Origin: an uncultured Candidatus Saccharibacteria bacterium
Lineage (GTDB): Bacteria > Patescibacteriota > Minisyncoccia > Phycocordibacterales > CAIJYI01
Reading direction: 5' to 3'
Length of the DNA stretch: 20,259 nt
NCBI GenBank assembly: GCA_964428135.1
Contig: CAYRXD010000018.1
Location: 1 to 20,259, forward strand
Shown: positions 1 through 5,872 of the stretch, piece by piece
Numbering within the stretch: position 1 is the stretch's first letter
Layout of the letters: the number at the start of each line of letters is the position of its first letter
Program-made: the position numbers and the translations under genes
The notes under the pieces: generated by a model
The model's input: only the letters and a program-made list of their open reading frames with translations
The model's database searches: none
What the model was told of the DNA's origin: nothing

Positions 1-382
1 TTCCCGCAAACACGGTAAGATGATACGTTGTGTTTTCGTATGAACCCGTATCCGCCCCGAAAACAACCGGCATGATGGTTTCTGCGCCCGGCACATTTTC
101 TTTCTTGCTCAAAAGTTCAAGGTCTTTATTCTTCAAAGAGTCCGTAAACATCTGCGCCACATCCGCCGGCCCCGTCGGTTGCCGCCCCGGAATGATGGCG
201 ATAGTCTTCGAGCCAATCCCTTGCACCGCCCCGAGAATCAATCTTTGCGCTCCCTGTCCGAGCGAGATGATAAGGATAATGGAAGTCACCCCGATAACGA
301 TACTGAGCATGGTAAGCGCCGACCGCGATTTGTTCACGGCAATGCTCTTTATGGCGGTTTTGAAAAGGTGTTTCGGGTGCAT
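1..382 (-). CDS. ABC transporter permease, MacB/FtsX family; N-terminal part only, gene continues beyond window start
   Basis: Not in the ORF track because it has no stop inside the window. Manual translation of the minus frame from ATG at 382..380 is open down to nt 2 (no in-frame TTA/CTA/TCA triplets on plus). It reads MHPKHLFKTAIKSIAVNKSRSALTMLSIVIGVTSIILIISLGQGAQRLILGAVQGIGSKTIAIIPGRQPTGPADVAQMF... This is a basic N-tail, a hydrophobic TM1, then the start of a periplasmic domain, the usual architecture of MacB/FtsX-type permeases. It lies 21 nt downstream of the RhuM gene on the same strand. Confidence 0.7.
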   Translation of the reverse strand, partial: MHPKHLFKTAIKSIAVNKSRSALTMLSIVIGVTSIILIISLGQGAQRLILGAVQGIGSKTIAIIPGRQPTGPADVAQMFTDSLKNKDLELLSKKENVPGAETIMPVVFGADTGSYENTTYHLTVFAG

Positions 383-403: not shown

Positions 404-1405
404 CTACTTCGTTTGTCGCTTCCTTTTAGCGCTTTCAATCGCTTTCAGTGCCGCCTCGTCAAAATCAATATCCTCCGCCGCTTCTCTTTTTTTGTATTCG
501 CTGAAATTCTTTTCGGCGATTTCCGCCGCCAGTTCATGCGATATTTTTCCGGCATCTTTCAGGATGTTTCTGTCGTTGATGATTAAAAATCCGTGAAGTT
601 TTTCCAGCCAATCATTCATCGTCATCGGTATTCGCCGACGCGCCTGTTCCGCGGCAAACACCAAATACTGTTCCACCAAGGCGTTAAGCTGCGCTATCTC
701 TTCCTTGTTGTAATAATTTTTTGCAATAAGAACTTCTTCTTTTGTCGGTTTATTTCCTCTCCAATTCGTCAGCCCGAGATTCTTTTTCCCGCTGTCAATC
801 CGCTCGACGACAATTTCCGCCGCGGTGTTTCCCGTAACAGCATAATGGACTTTATTTTGCACCGTCTTAAAAAACAAAACGCTCTGATCGTCTGCCGGGT
901 CATAATCAACGCTGGTCGCATAAATATCGGTAATTTTTCTGTAAAATCTTTTTTCACTCGCGCGGATGTCCGCGATGGTTCGTTCAAGTTCTTCAAAATA
1001 ATCAAACGGCACATCGGGATTTTTCAGCCGTTCAACATCCAGCACAAAACCTTTCACGATATATTCCGAAAGACGTTTGGTTGCCCACTTGCGGAAAGCC
1101 GTACCTTGAGATGATTTCACTCGGTAGCCCACGGCGATGATGACGTCTAAATTGTAGTATTTTACAAGATATTCTTTACTGTCTGTACCAGTTCGTCGGA
1201 ATTCCCGACATACTGAATCCGAGATGAGTTCACCCTCTTCAAAAATATTTTGAATGTGCTCGGTAACAGTAGATCTGCCTTTTCCATACAAAGTGGCTAT
1301 CATGTCTTGAGTAAGCCAAACGGTATCGCCGTCAAAGCGAACATCAATCTTGACATTCCCGTTCCGATCTTTGTATATGACGATTTGTGAGTTTAGATTT
1401 TCCAT
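404..1405 (-). CDS. RhuM-family protein (Virulence_RhuM domain, putative DNA-binding)
   Basis: ORF track 404..1435. The N-terminus IVIYKDRNGNVKIDVRFDGDTVWLTQDMIATLYGKGRSTVTEHIQNIF matches what I recall of RhuM-family N-termini. Start placed at the second ATG (1405, MENLNSQIV...), because the first ATG (1435) lies inside palindrome P1 and overlaps the upstream ORF. Confidence 0.75.
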   Translation of the reverse strand: MENLNSQIVIYKDRNGNVKIDVRFDGDTVWLTQDMIATLYGKGRSTVTEHIQNIFEEGELISDSVCREFRRTGTDSKEYLVKYYNLDVIIAVGYRVKSSQGTAFRKWATKRLSEYIVKGFVLDVERLKNPDVPFDYFEELERTIADIRASEKRFYRKITDIYATSVDYDPADDQSVLFFKTVQNKVHYAVTGNTAAEIVVERIDSGKKNLGLTNWRGNKPTKEEVLIAKNYYNKEEIAQLNALVEQYLVFAAEQARRRIPMTMNDWLEKLHGFLIINDRNILKDAGKISHELAAEIAEKNFSEYKKREAAEDIDFDEAALKAIESAKRKRQTK

Positions 1406-1418
1406 AAAGTTATTAAAG

Positions 1419-1676
1419 TTATTGCGGCATGACATGAATCATTTTCGTGACACCACGAAAATGATTCATGTGGTGTTTTTGGGGTTCGCTCACATGAGCG
1501 AAGTGCGAATCTATTTTTTGCCCGCTGTTCTTGCAAGATTCTTTCGCCCGCTCAATCGCCGGTAAAAATTTCCCATACTCGGTGTACCCAAGCAATTTAT
1601 ACAAATCCCGCGCACTCCAAAACTCCTGTCCGTGTTCGTTCACCTTTTTTATCTGTTCAAAAATGTTGTTTGGCAT
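1419..1676 (-). CDS. DinD-like / Bro-N-like N-terminal domain protein, probably truncated (85 aa)
   Basis: The N-terminal 65 aa (NEHGQEFWSARDLYKLLGYTEYGKFLPAIERAKESCKNSGQKIDSHF) resemble the N-terminal domain of DNA-damage-inducible protein D as I recall it; full DinD is about 270 aa. The last 19 codons are read straight through palindromes P2 and P1 before a stop, so the C-terminus is unlikely to be native. Confidence 0.5.
   Translation of the reverse strand: MPNNIFEQIKKVNEHGQEFWSARDLYKLLGYTEYGKFLPAIERAKESCKNSGQKIDSHFAHVSEPQKHHMNHFRGVTKMIHVMPQ
1434..1502. repeat. Two adjacent perfect palindromes: P1 16-bp arms (1434-1449 / 1454-1469, spacer ACAC) and P2 8-bp arms (1485-1492 / 1495-1502, spacer CA)
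   Basis: Read directly: ATGAATCATTTTCGTG-ACAC-CACGAAAATGATTCAT and TTCGCTCA-CA-TGAGCGAA. Both lie at the 3' end of the DinD-like ORF and the 5' edge of the RhuM gene. Confidence 0.9.
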
Positions 1677-1688
1677 AAAATTTAAAAT

Positions 1689-2408
1689 TTATTTTTTAAA
1701 TCCAACCCTCGCCTGCTTCCGATGCGCCGCTTTCTCGTCCTTCTCTATCTCCCCGTCTTTCATGTGCAAAATGCGCTCTGCGGTTTCGGCGGCAGAGGTT
1801 TCGTGAGTGATGAGGACGATGGTGCGGCGGTCTTTTTCGTTCAGGTCTTGAAGAATTTCCATGATGGCTTGCCCCGACTTTGAGTCAAGGTTCCCTGTGG
1901 GTTCGTCCGCAAAAATCACTTGCGGATCGGTGACGAGGGCGCGAGCGATGGCGGCGCGCTGTTTTTCTCCGCCGGAGAGTTCCGAAGGCTCGTGGTCGGC
2001 ACGGTGTTCGAGTCCGACATCTTTGATGGCTTTCATGGCAATAGCATGCCATTTGTCTTCGGGAATATCCGAATACACGAGAGGGAGAACGACGTTGTCG
2101 TACACGCTCGTACGGGGAAGAAGGTTGAATGCTTGAAATACAAACCCCATTTTTTTATTGCGGATGCTTGCGACTTCGGATTCTTCATAATCGTCCATTT
2201 TCTTGCCGTCAAAAAGATACTCGCCGGAAGTCTGCCCGTCAAGAAACCCAAGAATGTGCAGGAGGGTTGATTTGCCCGAACCGGAGGGACCCATAATCGC
2301 CACAAACTCTCCCGCTTCAATTTCAAAAGATACGCCGCGGAGCGCGACTGTGGCACTGTCACCGTCTGCGTATTTCTTTTTAAGATTTTTTACTTCAATA
2401 ATGGACAT
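1689..2408 (-). CDS. ABC transporter ATP-binding protein (MacB/LolD/FtsE-like ATPase, no fused permease)
   Basis: Walker [13 protein letters not shown] signature LSGGEKQR, Walker [14 protein letters not shown]-loop ITHE; 239 aa. Confidence 0.9.
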
Positions 2409-2572
2409 AATGGGGATTTATAATTTCTTATTTTACTATGTGCTAATTATAGCTTTTTTGTAAACGAAATAAAATTTGACCCACGGATCAAATAATGTTA
2501 TGTTCTTCTTTGAGAAGTCGGGGGGTACTCTGACTTTGTTCTTTGTTAAAAACTACTACCAAAAGGCGTAAA

Positions 2573-3124
2573 ATGAATACCGATTTAGTACCACGCACAA
2601 AAACGAACACTCTGAAACAATTCTCAGTTCTTCATGAGCAGATACAGGCGTTAGACCTTGAGGCAATCAAATTCAAACTCGTATTTGATTCTCATGGCGC
2701 ACCATGGAGCGTCGAAAAAGTTACGCAGATTGAACTTTTGTATAAACGCTTTCTTGTTTTGGTGGGGAAACACCCCGACAAGCATATCGTGCCTTTTTCT
2801 GAAGATGTCGATGCATTTTGGCATTGCCATATCCTTGACACGGGAAAATATGCGCACGATTGCATGAATATTTTTGGGAGGTTTATACATCACTTTCCTT
2901 ATCTTGGATTGCGGGGTGAAGAAGATTTACAATTTGCACAGAAAAGCTTTGCGGAAACCTGCTCTCTTTACGAACAGGAGTTCGGTGTTTCTCTTACATC
3001 CACAATATCCATGGATGTCGGTTGTACCAATTGCGCCCCGGTACCTTCTTGTAGCGGCGACCCAAGCCCGACAATAGACCAAAAGCGCCCATCACTAAAA
3101 GAACACCTTGCTCAGTTACACTAA
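2573..3124 (+). CDS. DUF1399 / glycine-rich-domain-containing-protein-like (GRDP-like) family protein with Cys-rich C-terminal tail
   Basis: The motif DAFWHCHILDTGKYAHDC resembles the W-H-C-H-x-L-x-P-x-x-Y-x-x-D-C core I recall from plant GRDP / DUF1399 proteins. The C-terminus VGCTNCAPVPSCSGDPSP is Cys-rich. The ORF track starts at a TTG (2543); I prefer the ATG at 2573, which has AAGG 6 nt upstream. Divergent from the ABC ATPase gene. Confidence 0.55.
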   Translation: MNTDLVPRTKTNTLKQFSVLHEQIQALDLEAIKFKLVFDSHGAPWSVEKVTQIELLYKRFLVLVGKHPDKHIVPFSEDVDAFWHCHILDTGKYAHDCMNIFGRFIHHFPYLGLRGEEDLQFAQKSFAETCSLYEQEFGVSLTSTISMDVGCTNCAPVPSCSGDPSPTIDQKRPSLKEHLAQLH

Positions 3125-3166: not shown

Positions 3167-3199
3167 AAACCTCACGATAATCTTATCGTGAGGTTTTTT
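3167..3199. terminator. Bidirectional intrinsic terminator between the convergent DUF1399 and S9 peptidase genes
   Basis: AAACCTCACGATAA-tc-TTATCGTGAGGTTT hairpin followed by TTTTTT on the plus strand. It sits directly after both convergent stop codons. Confidence 0.65.
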
Positions 3200-5726: not shown

Positions 5727-5797
5727 CGGGATGTAGTATACCGGTAGTACGCGCGATTCGGGTTCGCGTAGACCGAGTTCGATTCTCGGCATCCCGA
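5727..5797 (+). tRNA. tRNA-Pro (anticodon CGG)
   Basis: Hand-folded cloverleaf. Acceptor CGGGATG / CATCCCG (7 bp, C1-G72, A73 discriminator). D-stem GTAT/GTAC. Anticodon stem CGCGA/TCGCG with loop TTCGGGT (anticodon CGG, G37). T-arm CCGAG-TTCGATT-CTCGG. CCA not encoded. Confidence 0.85.
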
Positions 5798-5808
5798 TTC
5801 ATTAGACC

Positions 5809-5872
5809 TTATTTTGACAAGCGAGGTCGGAGTGAAAACAAGTTTTCACTCCGACCTCGCTTGTCAAAATAA
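5809..5872. repeat. Perfect inverted repeat with 31-bp arms and a 2-nt spacer, immediately 3' of tRNA-Pro
   Basis: TTATTTTGACAAGCGAGGTCGGAGTGAAAAC-AA-GTTTTCACTCCGACCTCGCTTGTCAAAATAA, no mismatches. No U-run follows on either strand. Confidence 0.9.

Follow-up and report, generated by a model that had tools for sequence, protein, structure and literature searches.

A dyad-symmetric DNA site within dinD genes and its bare copies at a truncated dinD of a Candidatus Saccharibacteria contig

Auxiliary operators that lie within coding sequence are known from lacO2 in lacZ and from the internal operator of gal. Other short palindromes mark cassette junctions (integron attC and pdif sites), follow stop codons (repetitive extragenic palindromic (REP) sequences and bacterial interspersed mosaic elements (BIMEs)) or form the quasi-palindrome hotspots of the thyA and lacZ reporters of Escherichia coli. 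The gene dinD is a classic SOS gene. Here we describe a dyad-symmetric site within dinD genes, starting from two palindromes (P1 and P2) of an uncultured Candidatus Saccharibacteria bacterium. They lie in a stretch of 20,259 nucleotides (contig CAYRXD010000018.1; the whole stretch is referred to as the window). In this window an open reading frame (ORF) of 85 amino acids with homology to dinD (Bro-N) reads through P2 and P1 and then stops (1419-1676, minus strand). The palindromes are copies of a symmetric DNA site that lies in-frame in almost every dinD, including that of E. coli. We tentatively favour, with a confidence that falls somewhat short of even, the view that the element is a DNA-level recognition site native to dinD and probably operator-like.

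The dinD site resembles the internal operators of lac and gal in being dyad symmetric and placed in an ORF, and it may occur together with a second copy near the promoter, at a distance of a few hundred bp (locus L078). Unlike those operators, it is in-frame across a whole protein family and many phyla, it changes by compensatory codon pairs and it survives bare after the gene is lost; its binder is a candidate only. The site shares with attC and pdif the occurrence of palindromes at cassette junctions and near ORF ends, the covarying arms and the rapid turnover of cargo. However, no integrase or Xer association was found, the cassettes do not have a site at each end, and in most cases the site lies within a gene. 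On inspection, the arms of P1 lack the RYYYAAC/GTTRRRY ends of attC and there is no R''/R' core. Like REP and BIME elements, the copies include palindromes of ~30-40 nt just past stop codons. REPs are multi-copy in a genome and species-specific. The dinD motif was seen once per ~9-kb viral locus and once in the 20-kb window, and the same sequence is found across phyla and inside ORFs. The quasi-palindrome hotspots are likewise short coding palindromes, and their templated arm repair may explain the 18-nt arms of P1. Those hotspots are mutational, not conserved, and do not recur as one sequence across phage genomes.

The palindrome of dinD genes

The family was sampled at 80 genome loci (designated L and a number) with dinD relatives, many of them 265-285 amino acids long. 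In nearly all 80, a stretch of 24-30 nt that has its centre between codons 61 and 62 is palindromic and covers codons 57-66. In full form the palindrome has its dyad between these two codons and outer arms CATTTY and RAAATG that are 12 nt apart. The E. coli K-12 version is GACCATTTCGAGGAG|ATCCTCGATATGGTC, where 13 of 15 positions pair. Other versions are ACCATTTCGAGGAT|ATCCTCGAAATGGT (encoding HFEDILEM), ACCATTTCGCTCAC|GTGAGCGAAATGGT (HFAHVSEM), ACCATTTTCGTGAC|GTCACGAAAATGGT (HFRDVTKM), CCATTTTGGCGGC|GCCGCCAAAATGG (HFGGAAKM) and CACCTCGTTGAG|GTCAACGAGGAG (HLVEVNEE). No published description of an internal dinD palindrome and no other relevant paper came up in the literature searches, and no solved DinD structure was found.

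The pairing is specific to this position. Across 60 full-length genes a mean of 10.9 of 14 positions pair at the codon 61/62 centre, compared with 3.5±1.65 at all other centres of the same genes (n = 46,485), and in 44 of the 60 no other centre equals the observed pairing. In a gapless alignment of 80 distinct segments the 13-pair stem is 83.5% paired. Slid controls, in which the partner was shifted by 1-3 columns, reach 32-52%. Changes on both sides were seen in 10 of the 13 stem pairs, with a covariation score of 0.429 as opposed to 0.216 or less in the controls.

The same symmetry is visible in the codons. Among 74 distinct 30-mers, residues 60/63, 59/64 and 58/65 are encoded by exact reverse-complement codons in 50, 46 and 50 cases, respectively. 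The pairs include A(GCT)/S(AGC), E(GAG)/L(CTC), R(CGT)/T(ACG) and F(TTC)/E(GAA), as well as F(TTT)/K(AAA), D(GAT)/I(ATC) and D(GAC)/V(GTC). The choice between synonymous codons follows the amino-acid change of the partner (TTC/GAA versus TTT/AAA, and GAT/ATC versus GAC/GTC). Because synonymous codons covary with the partner in this way, the constraint acts on the nucleic acid and not on the protein.

The palindrome travels with a block of the gene. The dinD genes of L348 and L350, two close relatives of the window, differ from each other only in ~nt 61-270. The dinD genes of E. coli K-12 (L085) and O157:H7 (L206) are ~100% identical except for nt 31-250 (~55% identity), and on the alignment this block is a swapped N-terminal module. 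Both the Bro-N core and the palindrome fall within the swapped block in E. coli and in the lineage from the candidate phyla radiation. The K-12-like form occurs in ~1,570 of 4,714 matching genomes (at least 80% of the query). The first-pass annotation of the window gave an E. coli DinD segment, HHFVETTKMVVLG, which essentially fits the common O157-type allele (SDHFVETTKMVVLGSG) and not that of K-12 (DDHFEEILDMVKIGSN). Other E. coli alleles have been altered in different ways. One (L207, strain Z0117EC0116) has an in-frame deletion between two QQA-coding repeats, and in strain H2 (L208) the N-terminus was lost to an inserted element with Icd-like and YlcI/YnfO genes.

Two dinD alleles at one truncated gene

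The 85-amino-acid ORF is a truncated DinD/Bro-N gene, as had been proposed from the sequence. Its match to the Bro-N profile is weak (24.7 bits, gathering score 25.6), whereas full-length relatives exceed the cut-off (39.6 bits for L029 and 32.4 bits for E. coli DinD). The product is 75-89% identical to DinD-named proteins over ~64-67 residues (E = 1e-34). Alignment to full-length homologues, as the first-pass annotation had recommended, placed the breakpoint. Codons 1-67 (1476-1676, minus strand) are homologous to intact class-A dinD, with 88.6% DNA identity (nt 1-201) to the 271-amino-acid dinD that occupies the same slot in L350. The homology ends after K67, at CCCCAAAAA, window position 1476, 4 nt from the edge of P1. 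Full-length members have ~265-285 amino acids, an LSRYACY motif and a C-terminal domain; the window gene is without ~200 C-terminal residues. With no homology beyond residue 67, the ORF is a remnant and not an intact DinD member. Relatives of 70-100 amino acids are common, but their C-termini all differ; a conserved family of short DinD N-terminal proteins was rejected for this reason, and no naturally short homologue with the C-terminus of the window ORF was found. For annotation, short 'DinD-like' ORFs that end just past the palindrome motif are remnants. Three other apparent truncations (L014, L046 and L048; Gracilibacteria/Peribacteria) were rejected as such, for they align over the full length and contain in-frame TGA. 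This is consistent with TGA being read as a sense codon, so that these would be false truncations under translation table 11.

Both palindromes reported in the first-pass annotation are real. P1 (1432-1471, both strands) is perfect, with arms at 1432-1449 and 1454-1471 that are 18 nt each, not 16 as first given, and a 4-nt loop; 6 of its 18 stem pairs are GC. P2 (1485-1502, both strands) has the form 8+2+8, TTCGCTCA-CA-TGAGCGAA. Folded as single-stranded DNA, P1 gives -19.2 kcal/mol (z = -7.9) and P2 gives -6.1 kcal/mol (z = -3.5). Shuffled controls did not reproduce P2, and for P1 0 of 100 gave two matches. The window contains no second copy of either palindrome with up to 3 mismatches allowed. 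On the minus strand the ORF reads FAHVSE across P2 and MNHFRGVTKMIH across P1, and on the plus strand the same palindromes read FAHMSE and MNHFRDTTKMIH. This likeness of the peptides, to which attention had been drawn, is an automatic result of reading a palindrome in its symmetric frame and adds no evidence.

P2 corresponds to codons 59-64 (FAHVSE) of class-A dinD. The segment HFAHVSEPQKS is conserved in the alignment of relatives, and P2 therefore belongs to the gene. Its sequence and position are the same in L002, L003, L008-L016 and L350. P2 has the inner 8-9 pairs of the dinD palindrome, and its outer arm is CCC (PQK) as in all class-A alleles. The PQK codons, CCCCAAAAA (1476-1484, minus strand), are the last homologous bases and are DNA-invariant in class-A alleles. 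They replace the outer arm in the class-A loci (L002, L008-L016, L022 and L350) and in the window, and a remnant of them is also present in the empty slot of L349. In 6 loci codons 57 and 66 of class A have nevertheless remained complementary to each other (TTG/CAA). It had been proposed that both palindromes sit where homology is lost; this applies to P1, whereas P2 lies inside the conserved part.

P1 has every feature of the dinD palindrome, including the outer arms. It encodes NHFRGVTKMIH, the counterpart of DHFRGVTKMIK in the full-length genes of L029 and L348. Its 28-nt core (ATCATTTTCGTGGTGTCACGAAAATGAT; 1438-1465, both strands) is 100% identical, centre included, to L348 4402-4429, which lies inside an intact dinD. 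The flanks of the core are unrelated to L348 on both sides. The outer 5-6 nt of each arm (1432-1437 and 1466-1471) are absent from L348 and complementary to each other, and this added complementarity could be the product of a template switch or fold-back. About 10 nt of unassignable sequence join the class-A remnant to P1, including the outer 6 nt of the arm (CACCACATGA). Because L350 matches codons 1-67 and L348 matches the P1 core, the two palindromes are the sites of different alleles. P2 is the native site of a class-A dinD allele, of which the first 67 codons survive in the window. P1 is the bare site of a second allele (the CGTG class, HFRGVTKM), of which only the 28-bp core survives.

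The remnant lies in a variable slot of a MacB-type ABC operon. ORF calls and profile matches place all genes around 1-2408 on the minus strand. The upstream border of the slot is an ABC ATPase (1689-2408, minus strand; PF00005) and the downstream border is the N-terminus of a MacB-type permease (1-382, minus strand; MacB_PCD), which runs off the window and is 95% identical to the start of the L348 permease. The interval between them (383-1688) is a hotspot of variable cargo. It was compared among relatives whose ATPase is 88-93% identical to that of the window (L345-L350). The slot holds a single intact class-A dinD in L350 (88% ATPase identity), a single intact dinD of the HFRGVTKM (CGTG) class in L348 (88%), Methyltransf_33 and DUF3800 in L345/L346 (93%), an NYN gene and two methyltransferases in L347 (90%), and no gene in L349 (90%). 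The interval between HlyD and the ATPase of L347 also carries a BanI-type restriction enzyme and a C5 methylase.

In the window P1 has the class-A remnant on one side. On its other side are a short leader (1406-1431, minus strand) and an unrelated cassette gene, rhuM (404-1405, minus strand; PF13310, E = 6e-102), of 333 amino acids from MENLNSQ. The leader aligns with that of L345, where it lies between a P1-type palindrome and the unrelated Methyltransf_33. Homology of the window rhuM to rhuM genes with 73-86% identity starts at the MENLNSQ start codon, and all upstream regions are unrelated. Ten loci whose RhuM N-termini show 81-93% identity share nothing 5' of the start codon; P1 therefore does not belong to the rhuM cassette. 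In all comparisons the homology of rhuM and dinD cassettes ends within a few nt of the ORF boundaries, which suggests ORF-precise gene replacement. Elsewhere, two different rhuM genes (357 and ~345 amino acids) stand in tandem at L210/L211 1220-3580.

Bare copies and other features of the window

The site outlives its gene in the same slot of the relatives. In L345, which has no dinD ORF, the spacer between the ATPase and Methyltransf_33 holds a decayed P2-like copy that is followed 20 nt on by a perfect P1-type palindrome, ATACCATTTTCGTGA-tg-TCACGAAAATGGTAT, with its centre 38 nt before the start codon. Compared with the window this copy has a compensated T>C/A>G pair. The stretch of P2, spacer, P1 and leader can be aligned throughout between the window and L345 despite the unrelated genes downstream. 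L349, in which the slot is empty, still has the right half of P2 with CCCCAA, a P1-type copy that is perfect and a degenerate third copy. As the tandem arrangement of P2-type and P1-type copies is shared with L345 and L349, it predates the window lineage.

Bare copies recur at particular distances from genes. They lie 35-62 nt before dinD starts in L047 (three in tandem), L058, L078/L082, the L157 group and L175, and those of the window and of L345 fall in the same range. The centre of P1 is 46 nt upstream of the rhuM start, which bears out the suggestion of an operator-like placement with respect to rhuM. The in-gene copy is degenerate in L058 and in the L157 group, both of which have an upstream bare copy. 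Copies at -46 and +204 are both carried by L078. Bare copies are also found just after dinD or hsdM stops (L022, L120, L078 and L131, the hsdM stops being in L078, L082 and L131). In L022, a class-A locus, the bare palindrome is 16 nt past the dinD stop. The L047 copies (~210-380, Flavobacterium) form three ~52-nt tandem repeats 5' of dinD, each with ACCATTTT...AAATGTT. They look like iterons or operators.

The P1-type motif, A-Y-CATTTTCGTG-N4-CACGAAAATG-R-T, is 28 bp long and has at least 240 matches over the metagenome and viral collections. At least 170 of them are bare, that is, outside dinD-like genes, in phage and metagenome DNA. An exact scan of metagenomes with CATTTTCGTG-N4-CACGAAAATG gave at least 120 stretches. 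Among 112 metagenome occurrences analysed, ~53 lie in dinD-like genes and ~59 outside, the latter mostly intergenic and in defence or phage contexts. When the gap was left free at 0-14 nt in viral contigs, at least 120 stretches were obtained, and the gap was exactly 4 in 119 of the 120 listed. Only 8 of the viral stretches listed lie inside dinD-like genes; the contigs classed as viral may include host flanks. In 81 de-duplicated sequences the information content is ~2 bits inside the 28-30 bp and ~0 outside. The motif thus has the dyad symmetry, the fixed half-site spacing and the sharp edges of an operator. No recurrent neighbour gene was found beside the phage bare copies, and the 28-bp motif, common as it is in phage contigs, is without a match in the Rfam families or papers found. 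In an informal comparison, none of the LexA, CodY, Rex, parS, Fur and dif motifs fits the site. The 28-bp motif also lies in-frame in a family of phage ORFs of ~160-175 amino acids that has no relation to DinD, where it reads DDHFRE(S/V)TKMMEF (L105, L128, L130, L146, L184, L188, L229, L234 and others).

The window contains other palindromes. The longest hairpin is a perfect palindrome at 5809-5872 with 31-nt arms and a 2-nt gap, which adjoins tRNA-Pro(CGG) (5727-5797) upstream of an HlyD-like gene. A perfect palindrome of 17+17 without a gap lies at 14207-14240 between ADP-ribosylglycohydrolase and NAD synthase genes, and one of 14+14 with a 2-nt gap is intergenic at 3167-3196, after the ORF at 2543-3124. 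An 842-amino-acid ORF (9495-12023, minus strand) has Major Vault Protein shoulder and repeat domains (PF11978, PF17795), which is unusual in such a bacterium.

A proposed operator-type site and its alternatives

An undescribed DNA-level signal is indicated by the persistence of bare copies once the gene is gone. An operator-type site is favoured because the spacing is fixed, the motif edges are sharp and the strands are symmetric. It is also favoured because copies recur upstream of starts whatever the gene, because the palindrome persists and compensates in non-coding DNA, and because it is co-inherited with the N-terminal module. A symmetric (dimeric) protein would recognise the dyad in a sequence-specific manner. 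DinD itself, through its Bro-N DNA-binding domain, is the candidate for this protein, in which case every swappable N-terminal module would come with a cognate site. Where a bare copy lies ~35-60 nt 5' of a start codon, the adjoining gene, here rhuM, would fall under the same control. The 85-amino-acid ORF that runs through both palindromes would be a by-product.

Several points weigh against the operator-type site. The binding protein is a candidate inferred from sequence. In most dinD genes the in-gene copy, at ~+183 to +204, is the only one, and this place is unusual for a primary operator, and the enrichment of upstream half-sites is modest (0.84 versus 0.49 per locus). Recognition of the outer arms alone would leave the inner 12 bp free, so that the model needs co-evolving classes of specificity. 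The phage bare copies are single and their contexts very varied, with no conserved promoter element adjoining. The matches of the motif scans were selected by the pattern itself and are lower bounds, and the neighbouring ORFs were called crudely. Finally, the shuffle statistics ignore the kinship of the sequences and so exaggerate significance; a comparison with the slid controls is fairer.

A site of recombination or cassette junction is an unlikely alternative, in which a recombinase acts on the 12-4-12 core, or the hairpin stimulates illegitimate recombination, and the bare copies are scars or empty sites. The cargo of the slot does differ in each close relative, including the dinD remnant with rhuM in the window, and the breakpoints coincide exactly with the two ends of the 28-nt core. 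Fragments of dinD end just past the palindrome in the window, L003, L024 and L069 (5' fragments) or start at it in L109 (a 3' fragment), and many bare copies begin within a few nt of a stop codon, hsdM stops included. The 28-bp geometry also resembles the crossover sites of small serine recombinases. Yet no second site flanks the cargo, for nothing follows rhuM or DUF3800, and no recombinase is encoded in the window. Near ~61 intergenic viral copies only 6 recombinases (4 tyrosine and 2 serine) were found among 91 neighbouring ORFs, a scarcity that also led to the rejection of a phage attP core. The cassette homologies end at ORF boundaries and not at palindromes, and no breakpoint was seen at the palindrome in mosaic full-length alleles, which break at ~nt 30-60 and 250-270. 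It is less likely still that the palindrome is a functionless quasi-palindrome that corrects itself, intrastrand template switching copying one arm to the other and hairpin fragility producing the truncations. Quasi-palindrome correction is a high-rate class of mutation in E. coli, and the compensatory changes are exact Watson-Crick changes with no preference for wobble. The perfect arms of bare copies (18 in the window, 18 in L093, 20 in L151 and 17 in L195) can be longer than any in-gene arms (up to 14 for the CGTG class in the metagenome and viral scans, up to 17 in the 80 dinD loci), which fits arm extension. This process leaves unexplained at least 170 bare copies of one 28-bp sequence, with sharp edges and fixed spacing, in phage and island contexts that are unrelated, and the near absence from viral contigs of two other dinD palindrome classes (6 and 0 matches). 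Nor does it account for the recurrence ~35-60 nt before start codons or for L345, where the P1-type copy stays perfect while the adjacent P2-type copy decays.

It is very improbable that the palindrome acts as an mRNA hairpin, whether in attenuation, termination, processing or stability, for dinD and, in the window, for rhuM. The P1 stem-loop would be stable and lies in the likely 5' leader of rhuM, and a terminator-like match with a T-run is present on the plus strand. On the minus strand, which carries all the local genes, P1 is not followed by a T-run, and an intrinsic terminator was rejected for this reason; the earlier idea of an attenuator fails in the same way, the family being without strand asymmetry. 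In 61 distinct in-gene palindromes outside class A, G-U mismatches are equally frequent on the sense (25) and antisense (30) strands, and non-wobble mismatches are commoner (77). Bare copies with an asymmetric pair 11 are oriented 6 versus 6 (viral) and 4 versus 4 (metagenome) with respect to flanking genes. The best E-value of a covariance-model search of Rfam 15 was 4.5, far below gathering scores, and an RNA element was rejected on these grounds. The loop length of 4 in nearly all the viral copies listed also fits a spacing rule better than a loop. The remaining proposal, made in the first-pass annotation, was that template switching or insertion of a palindromic element created both palindromes de novo in the window lineage and so truncated the gene. 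The mutually complementary outer nucleotides of the P1 arms, missing in L348, and the unassignable sequence at the join speak for it. We nevertheless regard it as extremely improbable: P2 is ancestral and conserved in dozens of intact genes, the P1 core is the native palindrome of an intact L348 gene, and the tandem arrangement is shared with L345 and L349.

Selection at the level of the nucleic acid, or mutational drive, dictates which pairs of amino acids are permitted in DinD. Compensatory changes of codons maintain the palindrome in a range of bacteria that reaches from E. coli to the candidate phyla, and the palindrome gives a testable handle on dinD. In a bolder and quite doubtful version of this reading, the palindrome would be the recognition site of the protein's own Bro-N domain, written in codons 57-66, with matched classes of protein and site specificity. 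The CGTG-class sites in phage genomes and defence islands would then mark DNA that is sensed or regulated by DinD-type proteins. If so, the SOS gene dinD would encode a protein that regulates or senses mobile DNA in a sequence-specific manner.

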